Below are positions 21,919-58,634 of a DNA stretch of 64,000 nucleotides, piece after piece. Each line of letters opens with the position of its first letter. Positions within the stretch are counted from its first letter, which is position 1. Location: NCBI GenBank assembly GCA_000990585.1, contig LBQD01000002.1, positions 56,016 to 120,015 of the forward strand, written 5' to 3'. Source of the stretch: Candidatus Moranbacteria bacterium GW2011_GWE2_35_2- (lineage in GTDB: Bacteria > Patescibacteriota > Minisyncoccia > Moranbacterales > UBA9337). A model generated the notes under the pieces. It was not told where the DNA came from. It saw only the letters and a list, made by a program, of their open reading frames with translations, and did not search any database. The position numbers were made by a program, and so were the translations under genes.

Positions 21919-21976
21919 GAGTCCTTGCCCCGTTATCCCGCAGGGATTTTACGGGGTCTCCCGCGGCACCACGTAA
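21919..21976 (+). repeat. Duplicated tRNA-Leu 3' end interrupted by a GCCCCGT...ACGGGGT hairpin
   Basis: GAGTCCT [TGCCCCGTTATCCCGCAGGGATTTTACGGGGT] CTCCC..GGCAC..ACGTAA versus tRNA GAGTCCTCTCCCAGGCACGTAA. Confidence 0.65.
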
Positions 21977-22124
21977 AATAAAAATAGGAATTTTTATCAC
22001 GTGGCGCAGCCACATATAAAATAGAAAACCGCCGAAACGATGATTATGTTTCGAGCGGTTTTTTTGAAAATAAGATGTAGTTTATTTTTTGGTTCAAACA
22101 TGGAACACCTCCTTCTGGATTTTT

Positions 22125-22622
22125 TTATATCAAAAATTTTTTCTTATTTTCGCTTAAATTGACAAAATCATCGGCTTTTTCGATAAGCTTATTGCTGGTT
22201 GACTCGGCAAAGGCGATTACTTCAACGCGGCAGCCAGTGGTACTTTGAATGTATTCCATCATTGGAATGTAATCCCCGTCACCGGAAACCAAAACAATAA
22301 CATCCAAGCTTTTACTCATTTTGATTGCATCAACCGCAATTCCAACATCCCAGTCGCCTTTTTTTGCGCCACCGGGAAATATTTGTAAATCCTTGGTTTT
22401 CACTTCAAATCCGGAAGTTTCAAGTGCTTCCAAAAATTTTTCTTCCGAGCCTTCTAAAGTGCGAATACCATAGGAAACTGCACGAATAAGTTTTCTGCCG
22501 GCAGTTGCTTCTTCAAGTATTTTTTTGAAGTTTACTTTTTTGTTGTGAAGTACGCGGGCACTATAATACATATTTTGAATATCAATCAATATACCCACGC
22601 GCTGTTCTTTGAATTTAGACAT
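22125..22622 (-). CDS. NYN domain (LabA/DUF88) protein
   Basis: IDIQNMY, KGDWDVGIAVD, VSGDGDY, ADDF. Confidence 0.9.
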   Translation of the reverse strand: MSKFKEQRVGILIDIQNMYYSARVLHNKKVNFKKILEEATAGRKLIRAVSYGIRTLEGSEEKFLEALETSGFEVKTKDLQIFPGGAKKGDWDVGIAVDAIKMSKSLDVIVLVSGDGDYIPMMEYIQSTTGCRVEVIAFAESTSNKLIEKADDFVNLSENKKKFLI

Positions 22623-22666
22623 ATTTTTTGTGTTATATAAAAGCCAGTTGATCTGGCTTTTATGGG

Positions 22667-22936
22667 TTATCCTTTTAATTTAAGTTTTTTTATGATTTTT
22701 TTGTAAGCTTTTTCGTCGGTTTTTAATAGATATGCCATTAATCTTCTTCTCTTGGAAACCATTTGCAAAAGTCCTCGGCGGGAATGAAAATCTTTCTTGT
22801 TTTTCTTGAGATGATTGGTAAGTTTTTTGATGGATTCGGTAAAAAGAGCGATTTGAAATTCCGGAGATCCGGTATCTTTGTCATGCCTTTTTATTTCTTT
22901 GGTTACTTTCTGCTTTTGCTTGGGCGTAAGTGCCAT
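22667..22936 (-). CDS. rpsO: 30S ribosomal protein S15
   Basis: DTGSPEFQIALFT, KKDFHSRRGLLQMVSKRRRL; ATG at 22936. Confidence 0.96.
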   Translation of the reverse strand: MALTPKQKQKVTKEIKRHDKDTGSPEFQIALFTESIKKLTNHLKKNKKDFHSRRGLLQMVSKRRRLMAYLLKTDEKAYKKIIKKLKLKG

Positions 22937-23121
22937 AGCTTTTTTGGGCTCAACAATCGTTCCGTTTTCGTTTATTGGAGCGAAGCGCAAACCATTGTTG
23001 GCTAATTAGAATTATTAAACTGATTTGATAATAACATTAAAATTTATTTTTGGCAACAAAAAACCCTTCTACCTAAAAGAAGGGTTTGATTGTGCGGGTT
23101 TATCTTATTTTTACGTTTTGG

Positions 23122-25593
23122 TTATATTACTGCACTGGCAACAACCTTATCATTTGATTTGAGGCGCATAATACGGACTCCTTGAGTGGCTCTGCCGAGA
23201 ACAGAAATACTTACAAGAGGTATGCGAATTATTTGTCCTTGTGAAGATGTGATTATAAGATCAAAATCTTTAATATCATCAATGTTGACAATATTGGCAC
23301 CCGCCAATTTTCCGGTTTTAGTTGTTATTTTGGCGGTTTTAATTCCACTTCCTCCGCGTTTTTGAATTTTATATGATTTAATGTCGCTGCGTTTTCCAAA
23401 TCCGTTTTGAGAAAATACCATCAGCTGATTTCCTTTTTGTCCTTTTAAGACAGCATCCATACTAATAACATAATCCCCGCTGCGCAATTTAATTCCGCGA
23501 ACTCCAGCGGCAGTGCGTCCCATAGCACGAACGTCAGATTCTTTGAAACGGATTGATTGTCCGTTGGCGGTGGAAATTATTATTTCATCAGTGCTGGTTG
23601 TTGGTTTCACCCAACCGAGGCGGTCTTCTTTGTCAAGATTGATTGCAATCAGTCCGCTGCGACGAACATTTCCAAAATCTTCAATTTTTGCTTTTTTGAC
23701 AATACCTTTTTCTGTCGCCATAAAAAGATATTTATAGTCGTCGTCTTTGTTGAAAGCAATCATTTCGGTAATTTTTTCCTCTTGGGAGAGTTGAAGGAAA
23801 TTAACAATGGCTTGTCCTTTGGCTGTACGGCTTGATTCTGGAATTTCATAGGCCTTGGTTTGAAAAACTTTTCCGGTATTAGTAAAAAACATCAGGTTGT
23901 CGTGAGTCATAACTGCATTAACGCTGTCAATTACATCTCCTTCTCGGTTAGTGGCACCGATCACTCCTTTTCCTCCACGCTTTTGAACTCGATAGACTGT
24001 CGGACTCATACGTTTAATATATCCATCTTGAGAAAGTGTAATAATAGCTTCTTCATCGGCAATCAAATCTTCTTGTTTGAATTCACCGATTCCACCTTTA
24101 ATAACCTTTGTTTTTCTTGGGTCGCCGAATTTTTCCGTTAAATCGGTTAATTCTTTTTTAACAATACCTAGAATTCTACTTTTGCTTTTTAATATTGCTT
24201 CCAATTCAGAAATTAATTTTTTGATTTCTTTGAGTTCATCTTCAATCTTTTTTCTTTCTAGACCTGCCAAGGTTTGCAATTTCATTTCCAAAATAGCAGT
24301 AGCTTGAATAGCACTGAGCTTGAATTTACTCATCAAGGATTGATGAGCGATTTCTTTGGTCGAAGATTTTTTAATAGTGCTGATAACCTCATCAATATTA
24401 TCCAGCGCTTTTTTTAGTCCTTCCAATATATGCGCTCGATCTTTGGCTTTTTGTAAATCAAATTGTGTGCGACGAGTAACAATTTCTTGCCGGTGTTTAA
24501 TATATTCTTCTAAAATGGATTTAAGAGTGAGGATTCTTGGTTCGATTCCGTCCACCAACGCCAACATATTAACATTGAAATTTTTCTGCAAATCTGTCAT
24601 TGAATAGAGTTTGTTGAGAACTTTTTGCGGGTAAGCGTCTTTTTTGAGATCAACAACAATTCTGACGCCATCTTTGTCGGATTCATCTCGTAAATCTTTG
24701 ATTCCTTGAATTTTTCCTTCTTTTACTAAGTCGGCGATCTTGGTAATCAGCGCGGATTTATTGGTAGCATAGGTTATTTCGGAGACTATTATTTGAAAAG
24801 TTCCAGCTTTTGATTCTATGATATCCACTTTGGCGCGAGTAATAATTTTTCCTTTTCCGGTTGAATATGCTTCGCGAACATCTTTGGCGTTGTAAATTAT
24901 TCCTCCGGTGGGAAAATCCGGTCCTTTTACAAATTGCATCAAATCGTCAACATTCGCTTCCGGATTGTCAATCAAATGGCAAATAGCGCCGGATAATTCA
25001 GTTAAATTATGCGGAGGAATGTTGGTTGCCATACCAACGGCGATTCCCATGGTTCCATTAATGAGCAATTGCGGTAGTTTAGCAGGAAGAACAGTTGGTT
25101 CTTGGTGTGTTCCATCGAAATTGGGAATGAAGTTTACGGTTTCTTTTTCAATATCAAAAAGCATTTCTTCGGCAATGTGGGACAATTTGGCTTCAGTATA
25201 ACGATAAGCAGCCGCCCCATCTCCGTCCATTGAGCCGAAATTTCCTTGTCCCCAAACAAGAGGATAGCGGAGGGAAAAATCCTGAGCCATACGAACCATC
25301 GAGTCATAAACCGCACTGTCTCCATGCGGATGATATTTTCCCAACACTTCTCCGACGACGGTGGCGGATTTGCGGAATTTGGCGCTTGGTCTGAGTCCCG
25401 TTTTCCACATTGAGTAGAGAATTCGACGATGAACCGGTTTCATTCCGTCGCGAACATCCGGAAGGGCGCGCGAAACAATAACGCTCATGGCATAATCCAA
25501 GTAGGATTGTTGAACTTCATCGGTAATTTGACGTGAGTGAATATTTTCTTTTTTTTCTTCCTGCTCTGCAGGTTCTTTTTGAGATCTTTTCAT
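23122..25593 (-). CDS. gyrA: DNA gyrase subunit A
   Basis: [23 protein letters not shown], catalytic Tyr in AAYRYTEA, GyrA box QKRGGKG. Confidence 0.97.
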
Positions 25594-25666
25594 TCTGGTT
25601 TTATTTGAAATTGATTATTTTTTGAAAAACCCGATTTTTTATTGTTCAAATAGTCGGGTTGTATTT

Positions 25667-25930
25667 TTATTTCTCTACAAGAATCTCGGATGATTTTTGA
25701 AAAGAGTCTGTTATTAATGATTGAGTACCGGAAAATTCTTCTTTGATTTGTTCGGTTATTTTAGAAGTTGATTCATTTTGGATGCTTATGGAGGATAAAT
25801 TTTCTTTCAAGGAAAAAATCCACAAGAAAAGAATGAAAAACATTGAAATAATCATCATTACCCAAAAATAACGCACTCGAATATATTCTGGTTTTTGGCG
25901 GATTTCTTCAATTTTATGTTGAATATTCAT
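25667..25930 (-). CDS. Hypothetical single-TM protein
   Basis: KPEYIRVRY followed by one TM helix, typical of CPR genes upstream of gyrA. Confidence 0.6.
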   Translation of the reverse strand: MNIQHKIEEIRQKPEYIRVRYFWVMMIISMFFILFLWIFSLKENLSSISIQNESTSKITEQIKEEFSGTQSLITDSFQKSSEILVEK

Positions 25931-26022
25931 TAGTATTTTGTATTTTTTGCTAATTATCAATAACCCTAAATTCAGAATAATTTGTTGAATATATTAGTAA
26001 TTAAATGAGTAATTTATAAAGA

Positions 26023-26682
26023 TTACTCAATATCCATTAAAATTATTTCTAAACTTTTTTCTTCCAGATCTTTCTTTTTGAGAGTAATTTTATTGACTTT
26101 ATTTTTTGGGCAATTTCCCATTTGCGCACAAAAATCTTTTTCATCGGAAACATCCATAGTAGACCCTTTGATTTTATAGTGCATCGGAATGATGATATTA
26201 GGTTCTATTTTTCTGGCAAATTCTGCCGCTTTTTTTCCATCCAGCGTGTATTTTCCTCCAATCGGAATAAAGAGAATATCCACTGTTCCGATTTTTCCGA
26301 GTTGATCCGATGTTGGATCTGTCGCCAAATCTCCCAAAAAACAAAGGCGCATTTCTTCGGTTTCGATTGTAAAAACAATATTTTTTCCTTTTTCCGCTCC
26401 TTCTTGCGTATCATGAAAAGTTTCCAGCCCGAGGATATTCATTCCTTTGACGGCAAATTCCCCTGGGGTGTCAATAATAACAGGATTTCCTTTTAGAGCG
26501 CTAATATTATTGTGATCATTGTGTTGATGGGAAACAAAAACGGCATCCGCTTGACCGAAAGGCGGCTTGAGTCCCACGGATTTGTCAAAAGGATCAAAGA
26601 AAAAAACTACGTCTTCGGTGGCGCGTCCGCCCGGTTTGGTGTTGATTTTAAAACAAGAATGCCCGTAGTATTGAATGTTCAT
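26023..26682 (-). CDS. MBL-fold Zn-dependent hydrolase
   Basis: YYGHSCF, SHQHNDHN, FLGDL, IIPMHY. Confidence 0.88.
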   Translation of the reverse strand: MNIQYYGHSCFKINTKPGGRATEDVVFFFDPFDKSVGLKPPFGQADAVFVSHQHNDHNNISALKGNPVIIDTPGEFAVKGMNILGLETFHDTQEGAEKGKNIVFTIETEEMRLCFLGDLATDPTSDQLGKIGTVDILFIPIGGKYTLDGKKAAEFARKIEPNIIIPMHYKIKGSTMDVSDEKDFCAQMGNCPKNKVNKITLKKKDLEEKSLEIILMDIE

Positions 26683-26822
26683 CTGTTTATTTAGCTAAAT
26701 TGTTATAAGGCTATATTTAAAATGGTTTATCATAGCTATTCTAGCACCAGAAAATGGTTTTGTCGAGATAAGGGCTTTGTTGATTAAAATGGGAGATTGG
26801 GATAATATTGAAGTAAGAAATA

Positions 26823-26880
26823 AATTTACAATTTTCAATTTACAATTTTCAATCAATTTCCAATGATTCAATTTTCAATT
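26823..26880 (+). repeat. Heptamer tract (AATTTWC) upstream of trpS
   Basis: AATTTAC AATTTTC AATTTAC AATTTTC AATC AATTTCC AATGATTC AATTTTC. Confidence 0.8.
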
Positions 26881-26916
26881 GGGAAATGATTCGGGGTTGT
26901 GATTTTATAGAAGTTT

Positions 26917-27900
26917 ATGAAAAAAAGGATATTTTCAGGAATACAGCCGAGTGGAAGTTTGCATATTGGGAATTATTTGGGGGCGATCAAGAATTGGGTT
27001 GATTTGCAGGATTCTTTTGAATCGATTTTTTGCATTGTGGATTTGCACGCGATTACAGTGGCGCAAAATCCGGAAGAGTTGCGCAAAAGAACTTTGGAAA
27101 TTGCCAAAATATATATAGCTTCTGGTATTGATCCAAAAAAATCGGCAATGTTTGTGCAATCGCATGTTTCTGAGCATTCTGAGATGACATGGATATTAAA
27201 CACGCTTGCAAGAATGTCAGATTTATTTAAGATGACTCAATTCAAGGATAAGGCGCAAAAAGAAGGACAAGAAAATTCTGGCGTGGGGCTTTTTGATTAT
27301 CCGGTTTTGATGGCGGCGGATATTTTACTTTATGATACCGAGGTTGTGCCGGTGGGAGAGGATCAGGTGCAACATATTGAATTGGCGCGGACTTTGGCGA
27401 GGAGATTCAACAAAAAATTCGGGCAAACTTTTGTGGTGCCGGAGGCGAGCGTGAAAAAAGAAACGATGCGGATTATGGGATTGGATGACCCGACCAAAAA
27501 AATGAGTAAGTCGGCTTCTTCGGAATATAGCTTCATTGGACTTTTGGATGATGTTGAGTTGATCAAAAAGAAAATCAAAAAAGCCGTGACGGGAAGTGGA
27601 AGTGAAGTGAAATATTCTGATGACGAGCCAGCACTGAAAAATTTGATCAACATATTTTCCGCTTTTTCCGGAAAATCTGCCAGCGAAATAGTTTTAGAAT
27701 ACAAGGGAAAAGGTTATGCCGACTTCAAAGAAGGATTGACAAAAGTGGTTTTGGATTTTATTATTCCTTTTCAAGAAAGGTTTAATAATATTAGCGACGA
27801 ACAAGTTTTGAATATTCTCCAAAATGGAGCGGAAAAAGTTCGACCATTGGCGGAGAAAAAAATTGAGGAGGTGAAAGAACGAATAGGATTCGTTCTTTGA
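26917..27900 (+). CDS. trpS: Tryptophan--tRNA ligase
   Basis: SGIQPSGSLHIGNYLGA, VPVGEDQ, KMSKS. Confidence 0.96.
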   Translation: MKKRIFSGIQPSGSLHIGNYLGAIKNWVDLQDSFESIFCIVDLHAITVAQNPEELRKRTLEIAKIYIASGIDPKKSAMFVQSHVSEHSEMTWILNTLARMSDLFKMTQFKDKAQKEGQENSGVGLFDYPVLMAADILLYDTEVVPVGEDQVQHIELARTLARRFNKKFGQTFVVPEASVKKETMRIMGLDDPTKKMSKSASSEYSFIGLLDDVELIKKKIKKAVTGSGSEVKYSDDEPALKNLINIFSAFSGKSASEIVLEYKGKGYADFKEGLTKVVLDFIIPFQERFNNISDEQVLNILQNGAEKVRPLAEKKIEEVKERIGFVL

Positions 27901-27959
27901 ATTATCTAATTTCTAATTAACCTAATTGACCTAATAAAAATCTAAGCTCCAAATTTAAA

Positions 27960-28328
27960 TCATTTTTTCTTGAGCTTATTGTTTATTGAATTAAAAATTA
28001 GATTAAGTTCTCTTGCTTCTTGCCAAAGAATGCGTGCTTCATCTTTTATTTCCGGCAGAGCAGTTGCTATAATTCGAAACCAATATTTTGTTTCTCTCGA
28101 CTCCTTCTTGCAAATGCCTATTTTATGTTTGAAATCGTTTTTTGATTCTGCATCATCAGCCTCACAATAATTAGCTCCAACACTTGTTCCAGATCTTATT
28201 AGTTGAGAAATTATTGGCAATGTTATCGTGTCTTTAGGTAATTTTTTGCAAAATATTACAATTTTTTCTCCAAACATGGCAGTGCGTTCTTCAAGATTAT
28301 ATATTTTGTCATTTGGATTATTGGGCAT
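27960..28328 (-). CDS. Four helix bundle protein (23S rRNA IVP-like, TIGR02436 type)
   Basis: QLIRSGTSVGANYCEADDAESKNDFKHKIGICKKESRETKYW; flanked by inverted heptamer tracts. Confidence 0.9.
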   Translation of the reverse strand: MPNNPNDKIYNLEERTAMFGEKIVIFCKKLPKDTITLPIISQLIRSGTSVGANYCEADDAESKNDFKHKIGICKKESRETKYWFRIIATALPEIKDEARILWQEARELNLIFNSINNKLKKK

Positions 28329-28351
28329 TTTTAGATCAATTAGAAATTAGA

Positions 28352-29725: not shown

Positions 29726-29852
29726 TGTTTTTATTTTTAAAATTATTAGGATGACTGTATTTTAACATATTTTAAAGAAATGAATAAAGTTTTTGTTATT
29801 CTTCCAATCAAAAAAAACAAACGCAACTTGTTTTTTTGTTTGGATTATTTTT

Positions 29853-36708: not shown

Positions 36709-36738
36709 TCCGCCCATGGCGGACCAGCCTTGGGCTGG
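36709..36738 (+). repeat. Double-hairpin element inside an intergenic heptamer tract
   Basis: TCCGCC-CAT-GGCGGA CCAGCC-TTG-GGCTGG. Confidence 0.75.
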
Positions 36739-48740: not shown

Positions 48741-48800
48741 TTTTTTTATATAATTTTAAAAGGAGGTTATCAATAATCTTTCTAAATAAAATATCAACAG

Positions 48801-49361
48801 ATGAATATATATTTAAATCTTTTGCCGGAAGAAAGAAAAGAAAAGCTAAAAAGAAAAAAACTTTTCTGGCTTATTATCAGGCACGAATTATTGCTTTGTT
48901 TCGCTGGATTAGTCTTTTTGGCAATACTTTTTAGCGCTAATTTTATTCTTAATTTGCAAAAAAAATCTTTAGACAATATTTATGCAATGGAAATATCTCG
49001 TAAAGAATATCGCGAAATAGAAAAGTATGAAAAAGCATTCGAAGAAGAAAATATTAAAATAGATAATTTTTTTATGTTACAAAAAAAACATCTCGATTGG
49101 CTGAATGTCTTGAATGAATTGGCCAAGGTTTTTTCGGATGATATAAAATTAAGCGAATTTGTTTCCGAGGATATAAAAATAAGTATTGCCGGAAAAGCCA
49201 GCACTCGTGAATCTCTATTAGATTTGAAAAATAAAATAGAAAATTCCGAATGTTTTTTTGAAACGGAAATTCCACTTTCAGATATTGTCGCTAAAAATAA
49301 TATTGATTTTGAAGCAGAGTTCAAAATAGAAGAAAAATGTATAAAAACAAAAAATAAATGA
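48801..49361 (+). CDS. pilN: PilN-like protein
   Basis: LNLLP motif + TM; follows pilM. Confidence 0.8.
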   Translation: MNIYLNLLPEERKEKLKRKKLFWLIIRHELLLCFAGLVFLAILFSANFILNLQKKSLDNIYAMEISRKEYREIEKYEKAFEEENIKIDNFFMLQKKHLDWLNVLNELAKVFSDDIKLSEFVSEDIKISIAGKASTRESLLDLKNKIENSECFFETEIPLSDIVAKNNIDFEAEFKIEEKCIKTKNK

Positions 49362-50029: not shown

Positions 50030-50035
50030 AAATGT

Positions 50036-50368
50036 ATGAATATAGAAAGTATAAAAAAAATTAATTTTAAAAATAAAGCGAAAAATCTTTTTTCTATATG
50101 GGAAAAGTATAACAATATGATTTTTATTGTATTTTTTTGCGTACTTTCTACATACGGAGCATTTTTAATATATCAAAGCTTGTATGATTCTACATGGAAT
50201 GAAAATCAAAAAAAAGAGTATATTTTGTCGCAACAAAAAAATATTAATTTTAATGAAGGTAAGTTGATGGAAATTATAGATGAAACGAATAGAAAAAGAA
50301 ATGAATATGAAAAAAATGTATTCTTGGGAAAAGATATTTTTATTCAACCTTTATTGGAAGTGGAATAA
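50036..50368 (+). CDS. Hypothetical single-TM protein at end of the pilus operon
   Basis: One TM; operon position. Confidence 0.65.
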   Translation: MNIESIKKINFKNKAKNLFSIWEKYNNMIFIVFFCVLSTYGAFLIYQSLYDSTWNENQKKEYILSQQKNINFNEGKLMEIIDETNRKRNEYEKNVFLGKDIFIQPLLEVE

Positions 50369-50414
50369 TGTGAAAAATAAAAAACGGCAAATGCCGTTTT
50401 TTATTCATACTTTG

Positions 50415-50486
50415 TGCCCTTGTCAGGACTCGAACCTGAAATGCTTGGTCCGAAGCCAAGCGTGATATCCATTTCACCACAAGGGC
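50415..50486 (-). tRNA. tRNA-Arg(TCG)
   Basis: CTTGG-CTTCGGA-CCAAG; GGTTCGAGTCC. Confidence 0.93.
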
Positions 50487-50501
50487 TGGAATATTTTTTT
50501 G

Positions 50502-50573
50502 GGCGAGTAGAGGGAATCGGACCCTCGTACCTGGTACCACAAACCAGTGTTCTACCATTGAACTATACCCGCC
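50502..50573 (-). tRNA. tRNA-His(GTG)
   Basis: G-1/C73; CTGGT-TTGTGGT-ACCAG; T-loop TCCGATT (non-canonical). Confidence 0.9.
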
Positions 50574-50596
50574 ATCTGATATTTTAAATTTCAAAT

Positions 50597-50686
50597 TGTT
50601 CTACCTCAACCTTGTTTTATTATTGCTTGTCCGCCTTTGGAGGAAACTATACCCGCCATGGAAACTATACCCGCCATCTGATATTT
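50597..50686 (-). repeat. Duplicated tRNA-His 5' fragments with a hairpin insertion
   Basis: AACTATACCCGCCAT at 50645 and 50663 matches 50561; CTTGTCCGCCTTTGGAGGA inserted between ATTG and AACT. Confidence 0.75.
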
Positions 50687-50688
50687 CG

Positions 50689-50760
50689 TACCCTCGCCAG
50701 GAATCGAACCTAGATAACCAGCTTAGAAGGCTGGTGTTCTATCCATTGAACTACGAGGGC
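50689..50760 (-). tRNA. tRNA-Arg(TCT)
   Basis: CCAGC-CTTCTAA-GCTGG; GGTTCGATTCC. Confidence 0.93.
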
Positions 50761-50818
50761 TTTGTGTATCCAGAGGGATTCCCACTCTTGCGAGTGGTCG
50801 CCCGAGAGGGCGAGAACC
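50761..50818 (-). repeat. Duplicated tRNA-Lys 3' end with a 32-bp double hairpin in the T-loop
   Basis: Sense strand GGTTC[TCGCCC TCTC GGGCGA CCACTC GCAA GAGTGG]GAATCCCTCTGGATACACAAA. Confidence 0.85.
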
Positions 50819-50822
50819 TTTG

Positions 50823-50895
50823 TGCATCCAGAGGGATTCGAACCCCCGACCATATCCTTAAGAGGGATCTGCTCTACCGACTGAGCTATGGATGC
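50823..50895 (-). tRNA. tRNA-Lys(CTT)
   Basis: Anticodon loop CTCTTAA; GGTTCGAATCC. Confidence 0.92.
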
Positions 50896-50938
50896 ATAAG
50901 ACAGTAATGATTTTATCAGTAAAAAAACAATTAGTCAA

Positions 50939-52198
50939 TTAAATCCCATTGGCTTTTTTGTATTCATTCCATTGTTTTTTCGACCAATCTTCGGGTTTTT
51001 CTGTTAGTTTACTTTCTTGCCCAGGATGTGGATATTTATTCGGTGAATCATAGTTACTACGAAAGGTTTCATCTAAAACAACTTTTCCATTGAGCGAGGT
51101 TACTTTTTGGGTAAAATAGGTTTTCATTGAACTATCAGGATTTCTTTCCGTAATATGCGGACCGTCAATTTTTACAACTCTTCCGTCATCAGTTCCATAA
51201 AATTGAAAAATTAATTCTGTCCCATTTAATTTTGTTTGAATCAAAATATTTCCCGGAGTGTTGTTAATAAAACGTAAATCCGGGAGAGGAACATAAATTG
51301 TGGCATCCATACCTTGGGGATTATAGTAAGAAACCGGATAAGCGTGATTTCTGCGCGCGGTTATTTCTAATCCACTATAAATAGCGGCGCGAAAAACGGT
51401 AGTGGAAACTTGGCAAATTCCGCCTCCAAATTCCGGCTCTGTTTTGTCATTTTTAATTACTAATTCCGGAAGGTATCCATGTTCTCCATCAACTTCACCT
51501 AAAATTTCAACAAAAGAAAATTCTTCCCCTGGAGCGAGTAATATTCCGTCGAATCTGCCGGTAGCCACTTTGATATTATGAATTCTGTTTTTAGGTGAGC
51601 CGCTAAAATTTGATTTTCCTTCCCCTATAAGATTATTTATTCCTAATTGTGAAATTTTATCTTCTTTTATCTTTGGCTCAATTTCAGTAAATGGTAATGT
51701 TATTTCTTTTGTTAAAGTTTTTTTTTCACCAATCATTGCGGATAATAGTTGGATACTTTTTGCAATGTCAAGATGGATGCCATTTTTACCGGGCGCAAAC
51801 GCAACAACTTTTTCATTTTTTATTTCTAACTTTGCATTTACGGGGTCTTTATCACAACGCCTTGCTAAGTCAGTAAGGAATGTTTCTATTTTATTATGGT
51901 TAACTTTTTGAATGTCTATGTTTTTCAAATGGTATTTTTTTTCAATGTCTTGGGAAAAAAAACAAAAAAAATCTTGCGAGTGGCAAAAATTTATATTTTC
52001 AATTTCAGAATTATAAGAATTTTTATAAACTAATTTTGTTGATATTTCAACCCATTCCGAGATTTCTTTTTTAGAAATTTCTTCTTCAAAGCTCGATACT
52101 TTCAAGATAATATTTTCTGATTCCATGGTTGCTAAAACTGGACATAGTGGTATGCCGATAAAAAAAACAAACAAACTGATTTTGATGTATAGTCTCAT
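50939..52198 (-). CDS. VanW family protein
   Basis: NRIHNI, GGGICQVSTTVFRAA, RRNHAY, DATIY, DLRFINNT. Confidence 0.9.
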   Translation of the reverse strand: MRLYIKISLFVFFIGIPLCPVLATMESENIILKVSSFEEEISKKEISEWVEISTKLVYKNSYNSEIENINFCHSQDFFCFFSQDIEKKYHLKNIDIQKVNHNKIETFLTDLARRCDKDPVNAKLEIKNEKVVAFAPGKNGIHLDIAKSIQLLSAMIGEKKTLTKEITLPFTEIEPKIKEDKISQLGINNLIGEGKSNFSGSPKNRIHNIKVATGRFDGILLAPGEEFSFVEILGEVDGEHGYLPELVIKNDKTEPEFGGGICQVSTTVFRAAIYSGLEITARRNHAYPVSYYNPQGMDATIYVPLPDLRFINNTPGNILIQTKLNGTELIFQFYGTDDGRVVKIDGPHITERNPDSSMKTYFTQKVTSLNGKVVLDETFRSNYDSPNKYPHPGQESKLTEKPEDWSKKQWNEYKKANGI

Positions 52199-52288
52199 AT
52201 TATACAGAATAAATTAAAAATTGCTTTTTAACAAGAAAACGCCAGTTTGATAAATGGCGTTTTCTTTGTTCGTTGATTTTTTTAAATA

Positions 52289-52828
52289 TTAAAACCCTCG
52301 AACTTGAATTCTTTTTACTTGGTTAGTTGCAGCCTTGGGAAGTTTGATAGTAAGAATTCCGTTTTTAAGCGAGGCTTCTGATTTGTCAGGAAGAACATCG
52401 ACTGGTAAAACAACCGAACGAGAAAACGATCCCCAATAGCATTCTTGATAGTAGTAATTCTCTTCTTCGATATCTTCTTCGGTTTTTCTTTCTCCTTTGA
52501 TGGTTACCATATCATTATTAATGGAAACTTCCAGATCTTCGGGTTTTACTCCGGCTATTGTTGATTTTATAATAATGTCATTATCAGTTTGATAAACATC
52601 GATTGTAAGTTGACCTTCTCCGTCATTGTCTCCGGTGTCATCATTACTCCATTGACGTTCCTCGTTTTGTACTCGCGCTTGATTTCGAAAAGGGTTATTG
52701 CTAGGCATTGTTATTTCTGATTCCTCGTCTTCGGAAAAAACATTCATTGCGCCCATTTCTCTTTCGTCATTTTCAATTCTTTTGGATCCAGTAAGTCTTT
52801 CCAGAAATGATTTTTTTTCTTTAGTCAT
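52289..52828 (-). CDS. Hsp20/alpha-crystallin small heat shock protein
   Basis: IDVYQT, YWGSFSRSVVLP, LKNGILTIKLPK. Confidence 0.92.
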   Translation of the reverse strand: MTKEKKSFLERLTGSKRIENDEREMGAMNVFSEDEESEITMPSNNPFRNQARVQNEERQWSNDDTGDNDGEGQLTIDVYQTDNDIIIKSTIAGVKPEDLEVSINNDMVTIKGERKTEEDIEEENYYYQECYWGSFSRSVVLPVDVLPDKSEASLKNGILTIKLPKAATNQVKRIQVRGF

Positions 52829-52920
52829 ATTTTTAAATTTTTCTTAATTTTTTTCTTATGCGCTTTTAGATGCATAAACCTTCGCATCTTTCCAGCATTC
52901 TTATTATAATTTGAAAGCGG

Positions 52921-53484
52921 TTATGATGCAAGTTTGTGTTTGGCTGTGAATAAGTTCCAGATATTGAGCAAAATAATTATGGCAAGTAGAAGAGGGATAG
53001 CTAATGGGAATGTTTTTTCTCCCAACAGGACAATTAAATTGTATAAGGAATGAATGAAGAATGTGAATAAAACGGGTTTTAGGGTGATTTTGTTTGGAAT
53101 TGAATAATATGCGATTATGCCAAAAGTGGCAATATGCAGAATGGCTATTTGTATTAATATTTGAGTGGTAAAAAATTCCAAAGGAGAAAAATTGTAAATA
53201 AAAGTCAATTCAACAAAAGAAAATCCTGCTCCGGCAATAAAAGTATTCAATAGTGCCGATTTTTCTTTGGAATATAGCAGGATTTTTTTTGAAATTATGA
53301 TGTATTTTGATATTTCCTCAATCAAGACAAATAGGAAAATAGAAAAGGAAAAATGAGTAAAAACAGTTGAAAAATAGGCAGGGGAGAATATTATTCCGAG
53401 AAAAGTTTGCAATAGAATTTCTGCAATTAAAGCAAAGCCAGCGGCAAAAATTCCCCAGAAAAAAGATTGAATTATTTTTTGCAT
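52921..53484 (-). CDS. PrsW-like intramembrane metalloprotease
   Basis: IEEISKY, GAGFSFVE, LH, HSLYN. Confidence 0.75.
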   Translation of the reverse strand: MQKIIQSFFWGIFAAGFALIAEILLQTFLGIIFSPAYFSTVFTHFSFSIFLFVLIEEISKYIIISKKILLYSKEKSALLNTFIAGAGFSFVELTFIYNFSPLEFFTTQILIQIAILHIATFGIIAYYSIPNKITLKPVLFTFFIHSLYNLIVLLGEKTFPLAIPLLLAIIILLNIWNLFTAKHKLAS

Positions 53485-53488
53485 TTTA

Positions 53489-56191
53489 TTATTTCAATTT
53501 CTCAAGATATTTTTCCAGCTCGGAGATTTTTATTTGCGCTTCTTTTAATTTTTTCTGTTCTTGCGCGACAATTTGGGCGGGCGCTTTTTGAACGAAAGAT
53601 TTGTTGTTTAATCTGCTTTCCATATCTGAAATATATTTTTTTAGATTTTCAATTTCTTTTTCGGCAGCGGTTTTTTCTTTTTGAATGTCGATCAATCCTT
53701 CCAGTGGAATAAAAATGTTGACTCCGGCAACAACTGTATGAGCGCAGTCGCTTGGTTTTTCTCCAGTTTCAATAATTTCAATTTTTTCAACTCCGGTGCG
53801 AAGATTTTTGATTAAATTTTCTTGAGAATTAAGCAAGTCTTTATTTTTTATCAAGCCAAATTCTACGGAATTTTTTGTGTCAAAAACAACTTTTATTTTT
53901 TTACCGGGTTCGATTTTGTTTTCACTGCGTAAGTTCCGAATGGCGATTATAATTTCTTTTATCAGATCAAATCTCATTTCGTCCGTTTGGGTTGCACTAG
54001 CAAGTTTCCAATAGCTTTCTTTTTCAGGATATTTTTCCGATATAAGCAGGGTTTCTTTCCCTAAAATACTCCAAATATTTTCCGTGACAAAAGGGGCGTA
54101 AGGGTGAATAATTTTCAAAATATCTTCCAGTAGCATGTTTAAGATGATATTTTTTTCCGTTTTATTGTTTTCAAATTTGCTTACTTCAACATACCAATCG
54201 GCGAAATCATTCCAAACAAATTCTCTTATTTTTTCTATTGCCAGGGAAAAATTATAAGTTTCTATTTCATTTATTATTTCTTCAATCAGATTCGACATTT
54301 TCTGCAATATCCAAAAGTCCGCCAAAGTCAGCTTGTTTTTGTTCAATTCCTGATTTATGATTTTCGATTCCTGATTTTTATTGATGATATATCGGCTAAT
54401 GTTCCAAAGTTTATTGATGAAATTTCGGGCGCTTTCGATTTTTTCTTGGTAAAATTTACTGTCGCTTCCCGGAGAAATTCCTGAAATTAAACTAAGACGA
54501 AGTGCGTCCGTTCCATATTTTTTTGAAATATCAATCGGATCGATGTTATTTCCGGCTGATTTGGAAAATTTGTCTCCTTTTTCATTGCGAAGCATTCCGT
54601 GAATGTAGACATTTTTAAAAGGGATTTCATTCAGGCAATAGGTGCTCATTAAAATCATCCTTGCCATCCAAAAGAATAAAAGCTCCGAACCCATCTGCAT
54701 CCAGCTGGTTGGGTGGAAAATTCCCCTTTCTTTTTCGGTGAGGGTGGAAAATGTCCAAAGTCCACTGGAAAACCAAGTATCAAGGGTGTCCGGATCTTGT
54801 TTTACAGTGCCTCCGCAGAGGGGACATTTCTCCATGTCGGATCCGCTTACGAAAGGTTTTTGACAATCCGGATTTTGGCAATACCAAACAGGGAGTCTAT
54901 GCCCCCACCAAACTTGGCGGGAAATGCACCAATCGCGCAAATTATCAATCCAATTGAAATATATTTTCTCAAATCTGCTCGGAGTTATGGTTATTTTTTG
55001 CGTGCTTTCATTATTCAGTCCTGTTTCGACAGCTTCTTTCATCAATTCTTTAAGGGTTTTGTTTTTGCCGGGAATTTTTTTGTTGACGGCGACAAACCAT
55101 TGAGTCATTGGCAGAACCTCCACGATATCCCCAAAACGGTCGGAAGTGCTGACATTTTGCGTAATTTCTTCTTCTTTTTCGAGTAGTCCTGCGCTTTTTA
55201 TCCACGCAACTATTTTTTCTCTAGCTTCTTTGACAACGAAGTTTTGATATTGACCCGCTTTTTCGTTCATTTTTCCATTTTGGTCGATAACCTGAATAAG
55301 TTTAATTTCATTGCCGGCCGAAATTTGTTTTTCGCGCATTTCGAAATCAACCATTGAGTGAGCGGGTGTTACGCCAACCGCTCCGGTTCCAAAATTCATA
55401 TCAACCGAATCTTCGGCAATAATTTTTATTTTCAAATCGATTCCGCTTCCGGCAAAGTCATGAACTTCAAATGTTTGCCCGATATATTTTACGTACCTTT
55501 CGTCTTTCGGATTGACTGCAACGGCGGTGTCGCCCAGTTTTGTTTCCGGACGGGTGGTGGCGATGGCAATCGGAAAGTTTTGGCAGTATTTGAAGGTATA
55601 TATTTTTCCAATTCTTTCTTTGTATTCAAGTTCATCGTCCGAGCAGGTGGATTGTCCTTTGACCGACCAATTAACCACGCGATGTCCTCGGTAAATGAGT
55701 CCGTCTGTGTACATTTTTTGAAAAACTTCATTAACTATTTTGCTTCGGGTTTCGTCGAAAGTGTATGCCAGACGCGACCAATCGCAACTCGTTCCCATTT
55801 TTCGGATTTGTTGCAAAATGGTGGATTTGGAATTCTCGGCAAAAGAACGAATTTCTTCCAAAAGTTTTTCCCGACCCAATTCTTTTCGCGGGTCTTTAAT
55901 TCCTCTTTCAATAAGAATTTTTTCCACTTTGGCCTGTGTGGCAACGGCCGCATGGTCAGTTCCGGGAAGAAGTAAAACCTTTTTCCCTTGCATTCTCTGG
56001 TAGCGAGCCATGATGTCCATCAGGGTATTTTCCATGGCGTGTCCCAAATGCAAAACACCGGTCACATTAGGAGGGGGCATCATGATTGAATAAGGCTCAC
56101 CTTCTAGGTTGTCCGGATTGAAAAAACCGGAATCTTCCCATTTTTGGTATATCCTATCCTCGTTTTCTTGAGGATCATATTGTTTTTCCAT
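53489..56191 (-). CDS. valS: Valine--tRNA ligase
   Basis: PPPNVTGVLHLGH, DWCISRQVWWGH, KFSKS (KMSKS variant), C-terminal coiled coil. Confidence 0.96.
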   Translation of the reverse strand: MEKQYDPQENEDRIYQKWEDSGFFNPDNLEGEPYSIMMPPPNVTGVLHLGHAMENTLMDIMARYQRMQGKKVLLLPGTDHAAVATQAKVEKILIERGIKDPRKELGREKLLEEIRSFAENSKSTILQQIRKMGTSCDWSRLAYTFDETRSKIVNEVFQKMYTDGLIYRGHRVVNWSVKGQSTCSDDELEYKERIGKIYTFKYCQNFPIAIATTRPETKLGDTAVAVNPKDERYVKYIGQTFEVHDFAGSGIDLKIKIIAEDSVDMNFGTGAVGVTPAHSMVDFEMREKQISAGNEIKLIQVIDQNGKMNEKAGQYQNFVVKEAREKIVAWIKSAGLLEKEEEITQNVSTSDRFGDIVEVLPMTQWFVAVNKKIPGKNKTLKELMKEAVETGLNNESTQKITITPSRFEKIYFNWIDNLRDWCISRQVWWGHRLPVWYCQNPDCQKPFVSGSDMEKCPLCGGTVKQDPDTLDTWFSSGLWTFSTLTEKERGIFHPTSWMQMGSELLFFWMARMILMSTYCLNEIPFKNVYIHGMLRNEKGDKFSKSAGNNIDPIDISKKYGTDALRLSLISGISPGSDSKFYQEKIESARNFINKLWNISRYIINKNQESKIINQELNKNKLTLADFWILQKMSNLIEEIINEIETYNFSLAIEKIREFVWNDFADWYVEVSKFENNKTEKNIILNMLLEDILKIIHPYAPFVTENIWSILGKETLLISEKYPEKESYWKLASATQTDEMRFDLIKEIIIAIRNLRSENKIEPGKKIKVVFDTKNSVEFGLIKNKDLLNSQENLIKNLRTGVEKIEIIETGEKPSDCAHTVVAGVNIFIPLEGLIDIQKEKTAAEKEIENLKKYISDMESRLNNKSFVQKAPAQIVAQEQKKLKEAQIKISELEKYLEKLK

Positions 56192-56288
56192 GATATTTTC
56201 TGCGAGCTACAAATAATATTTTTTCAATATTGTTATATTATCAGTAAACAAGGGAAAATTCAAGTAATTAGCTTTGCACGAGCTTTGT

Positions 56289-56346
56289 TTGACAAAAACC
56301 TTGGTGGGTGTAAAATATATATTCTGATTATGAAAGTTCTTTACAC
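56289..56346 (+). promoter_or_regulatory. Promoter + boxA-like motif of an orphan gene
   Basis: TTGACA-16-TAAAAT followed by AGTTCTTTACAC. Confidence 0.5.
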
Positions 56347-56411
56347 GGGTTAATTTGCGATTCAGGTTGCTTTAAATATATAAACCAAAAAACGATTAGG
56401 AGGACAGAAAA

Positions 56412-56885
56412 GTGGACAAAATACTAGAAGAGAAGGTCGGAAACGAATGGAATCCTATTGTTTACGTCGACCGCACTGGCCGTCCTGCGTATCCGGATTT
56501 CGTAAAAGAGGTAAAACATTTGAAGCTCGAGCTTGTCGGTCCTACGGATTTCGATGTAAGAAAAATTGAGCTGTGGCTTCACTCCAAGCAGGTGAATGGT
56601 TGTGCCATAGGCACCGAGATCTACGAAGATCTTCTTACCAAGAAATTGCTTGAAGGCTGTCTCGGTTTCGCTGATCTTCAGGTTATACAGGAGAGAGGTA
56701 TCGGATTTTTTAGGAAGTACTTTTTTGGTAAATCAGTGTTCGGCTGGAAGTCTGTCGTTCTGGATTGTCGTGGCAGACTCAATGTCCCATATCTCTTCGA
56801 GGGTGGCGACGAGGTGGAATTGTTATGGCGCTGGCTTGACGATGACTTCTATTCCCACAACCCTGCCTTGCGTTTTGCAAATTAG
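56412..56885 (+). CDS. Hypothetical protein with DGR variable-region-like C-terminus
   Basis: SD AGGAGG; ends VPYLFEGGDEVELLWRWLDDDFYSHNPALRFAN. Confidence 0.7.
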   Translation: MDKILEEKVGNEWNPIVYVDRTGRPAYPDFVKEVKHLKLELVGPTDFDVRKIELWLHSKQVNGCAIGTEIYEDLLTKKLLEGCLGFADLQVIQERGIGFFRKYFFGKSVFGWKSVVLDCRGRLNVPYLFEGGDEVELLWRWLDDDFYSHNPALRFAN

Positions 56886-57047
56886 CTCTCAAGATTTTGT
56901 TTTCTAGATCTAGCTCTCTTGAAAATTAGTCCTCGTGGCGAATTTTTTGAGCCTTACATTGAATATTCCATGTAAGGCTTTTTTTATGCTAAAACAAAAT
57001 AGTTATTAGTAAGACGTTTAGCTGATTACGATAAGAATTATGTAAGT

Positions 57048-58304
57048 TTATCCTAGTTTCAAATTCGCGTCGGCTTCCAGATTTTTCCAGTTTTGCTGGG
57101 CGTTTTCTTTTTCTTGGGCGGACATTTTTTGCCAGCGAAAAGCGGCGGCGCTAGCGATCATGGCGGCGTTGTCGCCGGTTAGTGAAATATCCGGAATTAT
57201 ATAGGAGGTGGCGGGTAATTTTTCTTCTATATTTTTTCCCAGTTGTTTGCGAAGCTCTTTATTGGCACTCACTCCACCGGCAAGCATTATTGTTTTGGGG
57301 TTGTACTGCTGGGCGGCTTTGATGGTTTTGTGGACAAGGACATCGATGGCGGCTTGCTGGAATTCACAAGCCATTTCTTCAATGACCAATGACCAATTAT
57401 CAATTTTCGATTTATTTTCTTGAAATTTTTTCATTTGGTACAAGACCGCGGTTTTAAGTCCGGAAAAAGAAAAATTGAAATCTTTCGAGTGTAGCATCGG
57501 ACGGGGCAGCTTTATTTTATGGGAAGAATTTGTTTTTGATTTTGAAATTTTGTCATTGGAAATTGTTTGGAAATTGGAAATTGGAAATTTGAAATTTGCA
57601 GCAGCAGCTGCTGCAATAGCTGGTCCTCCTGGATATCCCAAATCCAGAATTCTCGCCACTTTGTCAAAAGCTTCGCCGGCGGCATCATCCAATGTTTGTC
57701 CGACGATTTCATATTGCAGATGATCCTTCATCAAAACTAATTGCGTGTGGCCACCGGAAACGACCAAGCATAAGACAGGGAATTTTATACTGGAATTTTT
57801 AATTTTTAATTTGTAATTTTTATTGAATTTTAAATTATTTAATTTTGAACTAATATGTTTTTGTTTTGAAATTTGATTATTTGAACTTGAAAATTGTTTG
57901 GAAATTGGAAATTGAGAATTGGAAATTTCGCCAATGAAATTGGCGTATATGTGTCCTTCAATATGATGAATTCCAAGAAGCGGTTTTTTCCATTTGTATG
58001 CTAATGTCTTCGCGGTGTTGGTGCCGACAAGAAGTGCCGGAATAAGTCCCGGTCCGGCGGTAACGGCAATTAGGTCAATTTCTTTGGGAGTAATTTTAGT
58101 AGTGTCGAGAGCTTCTTTGAGGACGGGAAGAATATTTTTGAGATGTTCGCGCGCCGCCAAATTCGGCACTACGCCGCCCCATTTAGCATGAAGTTTTACT
58201 TGTGAAGAAACGATATTGGAAAGCACGTTCAAATTGTCATTATCAAAACTAATGACAGCAATCGCGGTTTCATCACAAGATGTTTCGATGGATAAAATAT
58301 TCAT
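57048..58304 (-). CDS. tsaD: tRNA threonylcarbamoyladenosine transferase TsaD with low-complexity insertions
   Basis: IETSCDET, HHIEGH, VSGGHT, DDAAGEAFDKVA, FSFSGLKT, DNAAMI. Confidence 0.95.
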   Translation of the reverse strand: MNILSIETSCDETAIAVISFDNDNLNVLSNIVSSQVKLHAKWGGVVPNLAAREHLKNILPVLKEALDTTKITPKEIDLIAVTAGPGLIPALLVGTNTAKTLAYKWKKPLLGIHHIEGHIYANFIGEISNSQFPISKQFSSSNNQISKQKHISSKLNNLKFNKNYKLKIKNSSIKFPVLCLVVSGGHTQLVLMKDHLQYEIVGQTLDDAAGEAFDKVARILDLGYPGGPAIAAAAAANFKFPISNFQTISNDKISKSKTNSSHKIKLPRPMLHSKDFNFSFSGLKTAVLYQMKKFQENKSKIDNWSLVIEEMACEFQQAAIDVLVHKTIKAAQQYNPKTIMLAGGVSANKELRKQLGKNIEEKLPATSYIIPDISLTGDNAAMIASAAAFRWQKMSAQEKENAQQNWKNLEADANLKLG

Positions 58305-58345
58305 ATATCTATTCTAACATAAAACCGCCCTCAGGCGGCTCATTT

Positions 58346-58400
58346 TGGTAGCGCTACGGAGAATCCCAGTCCGCTGGTCACCCGTCAGGGAGAGAACTCC
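58346..58400 (-). repeat. Duplicated tRNA-Glu 3' end with a 28-bp double hairpin in the T-loop
   Basis: Sense strand GGAGTTC[TCTCCC TGAC GGGTGA CCAG CGGA CTGG]GATTCTCCGTAGCGCTACCA. Confidence 0.85.
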
Positions 58401-58406
58401 TCTTGA

Positions 58407-58481
58407 TGGTAGCGCTACGGAGAATCGAACTCCGGTTACCAGGATGAAAACCTGGTGTCCTAACCACTAGACGATAGCGCC
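58407..58481 (-). tRNA. tRNA-Glu(TTC), CCA encoded
   Basis: CCAGG-TTTTCAT-CCTGG; GAGTTCGATTCTC; ends ACCA. Confidence 0.95.
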
Positions 58482-58561
58482 TTGCATATTATGTTTATAT
58501 CATCAAAAACCTAATTTTTAATAATATTTTTCTTATTTGATAATCTCTCCTTTGAGCATCG

Positions 58562-58634
58562 AGGATGCCACCCTGGCGGGTGGTCACCTGTTAGGGTGAA
58601 AAACCTGGTGTCCTAACCACTAGACGATAGCGCC
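58562..58634 (-). repeat. Duplicated tRNA-Glu 5' half with a 32-bp double hairpin in the anticodon
   Basis: Sense strand GGCGCTATCGTCTAGTGGTTAGGACACCAGGTTTT[TCACCC TAAC AGGTGA CCACCC GCCA GGGTGG]CATCCT. Confidence 0.85.

Follow-up and report, generated by a model that had tools for sequence, protein, structure and literature searches.

Results

The window, the whole stretch of 64,000 nucleotides of Candidatus Moranbacteria DNA analysed here, holds nine tRNAs and no other match in an Rfam scan. Five tRNA fragments carrying hairpin inserts and one intergenic copy had been predicted from this DNA, and we find all six in place, with the fragments adjoining intact tRNAs called by ARAGORN and Rfam. 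On the plus strand, intact tRNA-Leu(TAG) (21831..21914) is followed by what remains of the 3' end of an earlier tRNA-Leu(TAG) (21919..21971); a 33-nt insert (21924-21956), containing a CCCCGT...ACGGGG hairpin, interrupts this relic at about 61|62. An intergenic double hairpin (36709..36738), also on the plus strand, lies in an AATTTTC-like tract. The remaining features are on the minus strand. Intact tRNA-His(GTG) (50501..50572) has a 5' duplicate (50597..50686) in which 11 nt of leader and tRNA positions 1-12 (50686-50663) precede an extra 18-nt slippage repeat, a hairpin (50644-50630) and D-loop bases (50605-50597). Next to intact tRNA-Lys(CTT) (50822..50895), a 3' duplicate (50761..50821) consists of GGTTC, a double hairpin (50813-50782) at C56|G57 and tRNA 57-73. 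Intact tRNA-Glu(TTC) (58407..58481) lies between a downstream 3' duplicate (58346..58400), with a double hairpin (58393-58366) also at C56|G57, and an upstream 5' duplicate (58562..58634), which has its native leader and comprises tRNA 1-35, a double hairpin (58599-58568) at 35|36 and tRNA 36-41. Spacers at these sites measure 3-80 nt.

The inserts were found only in truncated fragments adjoining an intact gene, never within an otherwise complete tRNA, which speaks against a tRNA intron or intervening sequence. A three-way junction formed by fragment and insert was not the predicted minimum for the Lys or either Glu fragment.

The common architecture proposed for three inserts and the intergenic copy holds for the true double hairpins of the window, namely Lys, both Glu fragments and 36709-36738; Leu and His carry other hairpin types. 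Their predicted positions are borne out as well, with two inserts at C56|G57 and, at upstream Glu (35|36) and 36709, the site TT|CA. The His insert has just one hairpin, an imperfect one (-1.9 kcal/mol), and then unrelated sequence; its insertion site lacks 4 tRNA bases. The Leu insert belongs to a different, long hairpin family. The right arm of the Leu relic does not match the adjacent Leu(TAG) and has the same sequence as the 3' part of the old Leu(TAG), which the congener G003 retains uninterrupted. The Leu fragment did not arise by local duplication: it is the end of an older, displaced tRNA. The intact gene at 21831..21914 is probably the incoming copy, because its acceptor stem differs from that of the relic downstream.

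No intact nuclease gene occurs at the sites of the window. The 80-nt spacer between the intact Glu(TTC) gene and its 5' duplicate (58482..58561, minus strand) occupies the slot that a GIY-YIG gene fills in complete cassettes, and is possibly the decayed 3' end of such a gene. When 148 tRNA-upstream regions were compared with it at the DNA level, the GIY 3' end of a Glu cassette matched best, with a weak score of 58 that 0 of 200 shuffles reached (best shuffle, 56); a protein profile search of the spacer for a GIY-YIG remnant was negative (0.2 bits).

The duplications are real, not assembly artefacts. Four of them are common to sister genomes. A Logan contig of run X1 spans 50724-58464, including the Lys and downstream Glu fragments, with zero differences, and contigs of 175-179 nt from X1, X2 and X4 cover 58452-58626, in a comparison made at the level of contigs with runs that may be source samples. 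The His duplication is spanned by no piece among the Logan contigs listed. Short repeats break contigs in the region, and paralogous loci hold N gaps. RNA runs contained at most 0.07 of the words.

Comparison of orthologous loci, which the original prediction had proposed as a check, revealed empty alleles for His, Lys, upstream Glu and 36709. The Leu relic is present in G001 and G002. The His duplication lacks the 18-nt repeat in G001 and is absent from G002 and G003. The Lys site is empty in G001, G003 and the relative of run X5, and filled in G002 with other hairpin stems. At downstream Glu, G002 and G003 are filled at the identical site, with stems that are different yet pair; upstream Glu is filled in G002, which therefore carries both Glu fragments, and empty in G003. 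The 36709 site is filled in G002 and empty in G001. The orthologous Glu(CTC) locus is empty in G001 and has the 3' part only in G002; G000 carries a nuclease of one subclade at 35|36, and in G003 the D-loop contains a different hairpin together with a nuclease from a second subclade.

Insertion had been thought to be coupled to local duplication, and this stands in part. At Leu(TAG) and at the Arg(TCG) locus of G003, the tRNA was replaced instead: what is left in fragments is the former resident tRNA, and a different, incoming copy provides the intact gene. Native leaders precede 5' fragments and native trailers follow 3' fragments. In 28/39 cassettes, found by a search that favours identity, the 5' fragment and the intact copy next to it are identical, as simple local copying would also produce. 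The unit is tandemly repeated at Arg(GCG), Lys(TTT) and Gly(TCC).

The module is a double hairpin of about 30 bases, with the form YC-N4-loop-N4-GA followed by YC-N4-loop-N4-GR, and its stems covary. In the architecture first described, TC...GA then CCA...TGG, the second hairpin is more generally YC...GR, so that CCA...TGG is one variant. The first pair of this second hairpin is C-G in 24 and T-A in 22 modules, counted among modules selected for pairing. By pattern and pairing scans, strict double hairpins number 17 genome-wide, against 0-3 per shuffle (20 order-4 Markov shuffles, contigs C1-C4). Nine of the 17 are no more than 300 bp from a tRNA (such stretches make up 1.9% of the genome), and the same number sit in tRNA fragments, in line with the enrichment over genome-wide density that had been anticipated. 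The other 8/17, 6 of them within long ORFs, are also away from nuclease genes and mostly have 7-base repeats. The module is not tRNA-specific.

Insertion occurs without target duplication, mostly at TTN|NA, and in tRNAs at 56|57, 35|36 and 34|35; orientation is always tRNA-sense. In 32 non-redundant exact insertions, a set selected for zero overlap, T or C stands at -2 and A at +2 in 32/32. Exceptions to the YN|NA rule are TT|CG (L131, L137) and AG|GA (L132, L368). A palindrome is centred on the T-loop site. Among 48 tRNA-end duplications of four congeners, 39 have a module at the edge by a motif test; a strict hairpin test flagged 25/48 only, because it missed second stems of 4 bp. Together with the filled and empty congener alleles, this agrees with the predicted non-autonomous element with a site preference, a fixed orientation and a coupling to duplication. 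Outside the genus the T-loop junction is uncommon: a narrow pattern matched 2/401 phylum genomes and a wider one 14/201 genomes of the order. Among the non-genus matches inspected, those in G480, G575, G515, G507 and one of G013 are in tRNA-like fragments, and those in G525, G445, G594, G458, G585 and the second of G013 are not. In viral contigs the pattern matched once, away from any tRNA.

A complete form of the element is present at the paralogous Glu(CTC) locus of this genome (C3:127757-128250), where a fragment, a hairpin, an 84-aa GIY-YIG gene (C3:127842-128096), an intact tRNA and a hairpin fragment follow one another, the nuclease gene being the sole ORF; G515, of another family, also carries the complete cassette. 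The nuclease is a small (<150 aa) single-domain protein that matches PF01541 above the cut-off, and its fold is nearest to UPF0213 proteins and next to the branched-DNA nuclease Slx1. In NCBIfam, the three small nucleases had no match above the cut-off. GIY-YIG had been among the gene types suggested for a co-occurrence check, and we found a link: 103/160 loci of nuclease relatives have a tRNA within about 700 bp, 123/123 of these tRNAs are on the strand of the gene, and a split tRNA fragment occurs at 51/160 loci, against 0 in a reversed-tRNA control. This double hairpin also stands at Glu 35|36 in the nearest homologues, just upstream of the start codon. In a tree of 87 columns with weak deep forks, a single supported clade (99/90), which crosses phyla, unites the nucleases that have the long CCCGCC-type hairpin, and Glu/double-hairpin nucleases group together more weakly (90/86). 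In the examined loci, no 56|57 fragment was seen to be separated from an intact tRNA by a nuclease gene.

Across 41 genomes, in which kin are not independent, module counts track GIY-YIG counts (rho 0.40, nominal p 0.009). The association with the four-helix-bundle family PF05635 is weak (rho 0.24, p 0.13); its 3 matches have flanking 7-base repeats, and none is at the hairpin sites examined.

Discussion

Our data document the anatomy of the cassette, its alleles with and without an insert, insertion that is precise and duplicates no target, original tRNA ends outside with a working copy inside, and the link to the nuclease. We favour the reading, with a probability of roughly 0.6, that the elements of the window are non-autonomous relics of a selfish GIY-YIG/double-hairpin cassette. 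Its complete form comprises, in order, the native leader, the tRNA 5' part, a hairpin, a nuclease gene of about 85 aa, an intact tRNA, a short spacer, a T-stem, a hairpin, the tRNA 3' part and the native terminator. The nuclease may bind the hairpin in single-stranded DNA and nick next to it; the cut end, being tRNA sequence, could then invade a resident copy of the tRNA gene; the host would integrate the cassette, by recombination or by repair synthesis, with a crossover in the long arm (tRNA 1-35 or 57-73). The old tRNA gene would be split with a whole copy supplied, so that the cell survives. A donor of the same species would leave identical copies and a foreign donor would replace the tRNA body. 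Short forms could arise by loss of the nuclease gene, by recombination between repeats (excision or tandem gain) and by conversion between tRNA paralogues, and the module may also move by itself into other TTN|NA sites. The GIY-YIG domain hydrolyses DNA and is not known to rejoin it, so every joining step in this scheme is assumed.

A distinctly less probable reading, which still deserves weight, is that the module is a free MITE-like element moved by an unlinked factor: tRNA loops would simply match TTN|NA, hits would survive only where a whole tRNA is preserved by tandem duplication, and the GIY-YIG genes would merely share the hot spots. This would account for the copies in long ORFs and in 7-base repeats (6/8 non-tRNA copies here, 8/20 sampled sites in relatives), for the A at the right flank in 65/71 contexts, whichever the tRNA, and for G028, which has 9 module-pattern matches and no PF01541 match; the non-tRNA copies with 7-base repeats hint at another mobiliser. 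Against it, a module lies exactly at the edge of the 39/48 end duplications, with few empty, so that the two processes, duplication and insertion, either coincide in one event or are closely tied. Moreover, hairpin type follows nuclease subclade, and the position of the module before the nuclease start is fixed.

We consider it improbable that insertion is RNA-templated, with a reverse transcriptase of the host copying a transcript of hairpin, nuclease and tRNA into a nicked tRNA gene. Reverse transcriptase genes do occur in 4/4 congeners, many 5' duplications start exactly at tRNA +1, and the tRNA-sense orientation has no exception. However, both reverse transcriptases of this genome, a gene type that the original prediction had listed for a co-occurrence check, belong to unlinked diversity-generating retroelements with their own template and variable repeats (mismatches at A, 17/17 and 13/16), and G028 carries modules without a reverse transcriptase match. 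A mature-tRNA template is further disfavoured by leader bases within the His and Ser duplicates and by encoded CCA, which is not in excess (0/14 intact tRNAs with a 3' duplicate vs 26/136 others, in a test that missed the Glu(TTC) loci, of which that of G000 has CCA). A precursor-RNA template would still be conceivable.

Slightly less probable again is peel-and-paste transposition of a minimal two-hairpin element by an HUH enzyme (RAYT or IS200/IS605), the route first suggested. IS200/IS605 and REP elements behave in a similar way, with two hairpins, a conserved motif 5' of the site and no duplication of the target, and Y1_Tnp occurs in 20/41 relatives. Yet none of the four genus genomes (86-97% complete), those richest in T-loop insertions, yielded a Y1_Tnp match or any RAYT/IS200 gene, module and Y1_Tnp counts are uncorrelated (rho 0.12, 41 genomes), and tRNA duplication is left unexplained.

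It is very unlikely that no dedicated enzyme is involved and that replication slippage and template switching at tRNA palindromes create and spread the hairpins. The tandem unit repeats, the 18-nt repeat at His and the palindrome centred on the T-loop site are what such a process would leave, and slippage does explain the tandem copies. As the origin of the insert it is largely refuted, since the insert is unrelated to local sequence and keeps one consensus across families and named phyla. An assembly artefact, which contig-breaking repeats and N gaps might suggest, is negligible given that independent assemblies and other species hold the same structures, with substitutions.

Should the cassette reading be right, a large number of 'hypothetical' stand-alone GIY-YIG genes would gain a substrate and a role, tRNA fragments and the rapid turnover of tRNA genes in ultra-small bacteria would be explained, and an element would be seen to move without a transposase, integrase or reverse transcriptase of its own. 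More tentatively, it is possible that an 85-aa nuclease and a 30-base double hairpin constitute a minimal mobile class that uses tRNA genes as universal homology anchors, swaps working tRNA genes between genomes or isoacceptors, and frees a bare, scar-free hairpin of programmable site that invades essential genes in frame. As the pairing of nuclease and hairpin varies between subclades, it offers a testable source of small, site-specific DNA nickases that extends beyond Ssn, which is compared below. Exact test substrates are defined by the sister-species alleles: empty, with the 3' part only, and with two different cassettes at the same tRNA.

A full-text search, with most subscription journals outside its coverage, found no published description of a hairpin/GIY-YIG/split-tRNA system. 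In integrative elements that use tRNA att sites, incoming DNA restores the tRNA and the displaced original end stays at the border. A displaced end lies at the element border here too, but it contains a hairpin, there is no integrase, the cargo is 55-310 bp, and both 5' and 3' ends are used. Rickettsia palindromic elements, of about 150 bp, are tolerated in frame in housekeeping genes; palindromes are similarly kept here, although they are about 30 bp and tied to a nuclease and tRNA splitting. SegB is a GIY-YIG nuclease. This homing endonuclease, whose gene is enriched next to tRNA genes, drives amplification of a tRNA-containing segment (PMC13096335). It is phage-encoded and free-standing, and the accessible text of that paper reports no hairpin module or split tRNA, whereas here the nuclease-only domain is chromosomal. 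REP/REPIN elements with RAYT and IS200/IS605 miniature elements (cited in PMC11893778) are likewise short non-autonomous palindromes mobilised in trans without target duplication; in contrast, no Y1/HUH gene was found in the genus here, and insertion is coupled to tRNA duplication and replacement.

The closest parallel is the Ssn/SRM system (SsnA, cd10448), in which a single-domain GIY-YIG gene of about 90 aa has oriented short hairpins on its flanks in a repeat-gene-repeat arrangement, the hairpins (NTS/SRM) also stand alone in many copies, and SsnA cuts single-stranded DNA just upstream of an oriented hairpin, according to the main text of PMC11893778. The word 'tRNA' appears 0 times in that main text, whereas the module here is a double hairpin inside split tRNA ends. 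The SRM motif was found at 0/160 nuclease loci and 0/6 window sites, with the SRM-flanked paralogue L050 scoring 1 as a positive control. The best reading is probably that the cassette works like Ssn-SRM but outside that clade. SRM-flanked proteins, our proxy for cd10448, form a separate long-branch clade (100/99) in the 87-column tree, whose deep forks are weak.

Split tRNA genes in the window

Nine tRNAs are called in the window by ARAGORN and Rfam. As the original prediction described, Leu(TAG), His and Lys(CTT) each have a neighbouring partial tRNA copy with an insert, and Glu(TTC) has one on either flank. The Lys insert, both Glu inserts and an intergenic copy at 36709 each consist of a pair of adjoining hairpins, 28-32 nt in length (the module). 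The hairpin inserts predicted in the other two fragments hold in part: the His insert has a single imperfect hairpin followed by a tail, and that at Leu is a longer hairpin belonging to a different family. These structures are not assembly errors, since positions 50724-58464 are matched exactly by a 7.7-kb Logan contig (a contig-level comparison, with a run that is possibly the source sample) and the same structures occur, with substitutions, in sister species.

A split-match search of the genome recovered 16 tRNA fragments with an interruption, which belong to 9 of the 42 tRNA calls and in 10 cases are broken at position 56|57, against two matches with reversed tRNAs as a control; the Leu fragment was overlooked because its sequence differs from that of the neighbouring tRNA. 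Under strict criteria the genome has 17 double hairpins, compared with 0-3 per shuffle in 20 shuffles. Nine of the 17 have a tRNA within 300 bp, and such zones make up 1.9% of the genome, so the module does exceed its genome-wide density at tRNAs. The remaining eight, one of which may be a chance match, lie mostly within AATTTTC-like tracts, and six are inside ORFs of 291-697 codons, whose N-termini may resemble KsgA, MiaB and MetRS. The module is therefore strongly enriched at tRNAs, yet not limited to them. A looser pattern is present in 33 of 41 related genomes, and the T-loop junction occurs mainly in the window's genus.

Window 5132-5173, within a 746-aa ORF (4101-6341), contains single hairpins of the first-stem type, two in tandem with a spacer of the 7-base type between them. 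A second repeat, starting CACGTAAAAT and ending CACGTGGCGCAGCC, stands 3' of several tRNA ends (window 21970-22012; source genome G000, contig C4 after Leu(GAG) and Val(TAC) and contig C3 after Ala(TGC)) and is tandem in congeners. At C1:152999-153171 of G000 there are two unusual tRNA calls, one a 91-nt 'Lys(TTT)' whose variable arm is long and the other an 'Ala(AGC)', with none like them among the congener tRNA loci compared.

Module form and insertion site

The consensus of 69 non-redundant modules reads TC-N-N-CC, a loop of 3-4, GG-N-N-GA, then YC-N-N-CC, a loop, GG-N-N-GR. In this set, which was preselected for pairing, both sides vary at pair 3 (C-G 23, A-T 19) and pair 4 (G-C 22, C-G 19) of the first hairpin and at pair 1 of the second (C-G 24, T-A 22). 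Glu 56|57 is an orthologous site at which three congeners carry three different stems, all of which pair. The predicted tRNA-sense orientation was borne out, with the TC-hairpin first in 19 of 19 asymmetric cases.

From 404 tRNA calls, 163 raw matches were filtered to zero overlap and a double hairpin, giving 32 non-redundant exact insertions at 56|57 (14), 35|36 (10) and 34|35 (6), and also at 12|13 and 36|37. Zero bases are duplicated or lost in these 32, a set filtered for zero overlap, and all 32 have T or C at -2 and A at +2. A tRNA-independent count found A at +2 in 65 of 71 module contexts; TT|CG and AG|GA are exceptions to the site.

Filled and empty alleles

Orthologous loci were compared for empty sites across the congeners G001, G002 and G003. 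The upstream Glu(TTC) site is filled in G000 and G002 and empty in G003; the Lys(CTT) 3' site is filled in G000 and G002 and empty in G001, G003 and a relative in sequencing run X5; the His 5' site is filled in G000 and G001 and empty in G002 and G003; and the 36709 module is present in G002, the G001 allele being empty. Filled alleles keep the native leader ahead of the 5' fragment, and behind the 3' fragment they keep the native trailer. The fragments are therefore the ends of the original gene, with the working tRNA sitting within new material.

This working copy is sometimes foreign. The acceptor end of the Leu relic is unlike that of the Leu(TAG) next to it and identical to the uninterrupted 3' part of the old Leu(TAG) in G003, where it stands behind yet another Leu(TAG) body; also in G003, a different Arg(TCG) gene lies between two halves of the genus-typical Arg(TCG); and the Lys(CTT) body of G001 and G002 is that of their Lys(TTT), whereas G000 and G003 differ. 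Four congeners hold 48 tRNA-end duplications, at 29 of 150 tRNA genes, and the module core lies at the duplication edge in 39 of the 48, versus 45 of 5135 random flank positions; among the nine without it, two touch N gaps and three show no hairpin of the module family. The proposed coupling of insertion to local duplication thus stands as regards the duplication edges, but not where the working copy is foreign, at Leu(TAG) and at Arg(TCG) of G003. In cassettes that combine the module with a small nuclease gene and an intact tRNA, the fragment is identical to the intact copy in 28 of 39, which same-species donors, conversion or local copying would produce.

The Arg(TCG) gene beside His is split repeatedly, its halves being separated by a 168-nt insert or by a different Arg(TCG) gene (loci L022 in G003, L028 in G006 and L023 in G023; an X5 contig at window 50450-50468). 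At locus L039 (G030:C17), an intact Lys(CTT) tRNA lies within ~21-nt inverted repeats, which are themselves placed in the T-arm of an earlier Lys copy, an arrangement that resembles a miniature composite element.

A linked GIY-YIG nuclease

A GIY-YIG gene, one of the companions suggested at the outset, does accompany the module: at Glu(CTC) on C3 of G000, an 84-aa GIY-YIG gene lies between a 5' fragment and the intact tRNA, in the same layout as at the window's Glu(TTC). Across 160 loci of its relatives (the best 80 of 115 in genomes and the best 80 of 276 in metagenomes), a tRNA adjoins the nuclease gene in 103, the tRNAs beside nuclease genes are co-oriented with the gene in 123 of 123 cases, and split tRNA fragments occur at 51 loci, versus none in the control. 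Most of the named hosts are Patescibacteria; some are Bacteroidota or belong to other groups. A single-sequence model (pLDDT 76) predicts a fold nearest UPF0213 proteins and next Slx1, and Tyr, Tyr, Arg, His and Glu stand where the catalytic set is expected. The 80-nt Glu spacer of the window may be what is left of such a gene; a DNA test was suggestive, and a protein test found no GIY-YIG remnant in it.

Two different GIY-YIG genes stand in tandem at locus L137, each with an 8-nt tRNA start and a double hairpin in front of it, and a single intact Glu tRNA follows them. At L050 (G000 C1:140590-140960), an Ssn-like GIY-YIG gene is flanked by SRM, the hairpin repeat of Ssn nucleases, and an SRM-like palindrome at G000 C2:228285-228330 holds a hairpin module in its own loop.

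Mechanism and comparison with known systems

The anatomy, polymorphism, precision and nuclease linkage of the cassette are direct observations. As to how it moves, we favour, with a probability of roughly 0.6, a route in which the nuclease would nick hairpin-bearing DNA, by analogy with SsnA and SegB, the nicked end, being tRNA sequence, would invade a resident tRNA gene, and host repair would integrate the unit and restore a whole tRNA. The SsnA cut in ssDNA falls just upstream of an oriented hairpin (PMC11893778), and amplification of tRNA segments is driven by SegB (PMC13096335).

The main rival, a free 30-base element served by another mobiliser, draws support from the module copies inside genes and from a relative's genome, G028, that has modules and no GIY-YIG match; we consider it unlikely. 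With regard to nicking by the cassette's own nuclease, hairpin type tracks nuclease subclade in a tree of few columns and weak deep forks, and the Glu 35|36 double hairpin recurs at the nearest nuclease homologues among the best matches. At the orthologous Glu(CTC) of G003 the nuclease belongs to a different subclade and the hairpin, in the D-loop, is also different; G001 is empty there. The RAYT/IS200-type (HUH) and reverse-transcriptase links initially proposed find no support, no Y1 transposase having been found in the window's genus and both RTs of G000 being diversity-generating retroelements (C3:4663-7144 and C3:95411-97932, whose template/variable repeat mismatches fall at A in 17/17 and 13/16).

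The Ssn-SRM pair works similarly, but the cassette lacks the SRM motif; the RAYT-REP pair also works similarly, but the cassette has no HUH protein; and a tRNA-att island is alike, but the cassette is without an integrase. A literature search found no published description of a nuclease-hairpin-tRNA cassette. The module and cassette are real, and are a variant, itself new, of the small-nuclease-plus-hairpin kind.

Diversity-generating retroelements usually carry a stem-loop past the variable repeat, and C3:5326-5340, just beyond the variable repeat of the first of the two, holds a lone hairpin of the module's first-stem type. Genes for PF05635 four-helix bundles stand between mirrored 7-base repeats at G000 C3:17200-17950 and C2:83900-84400.
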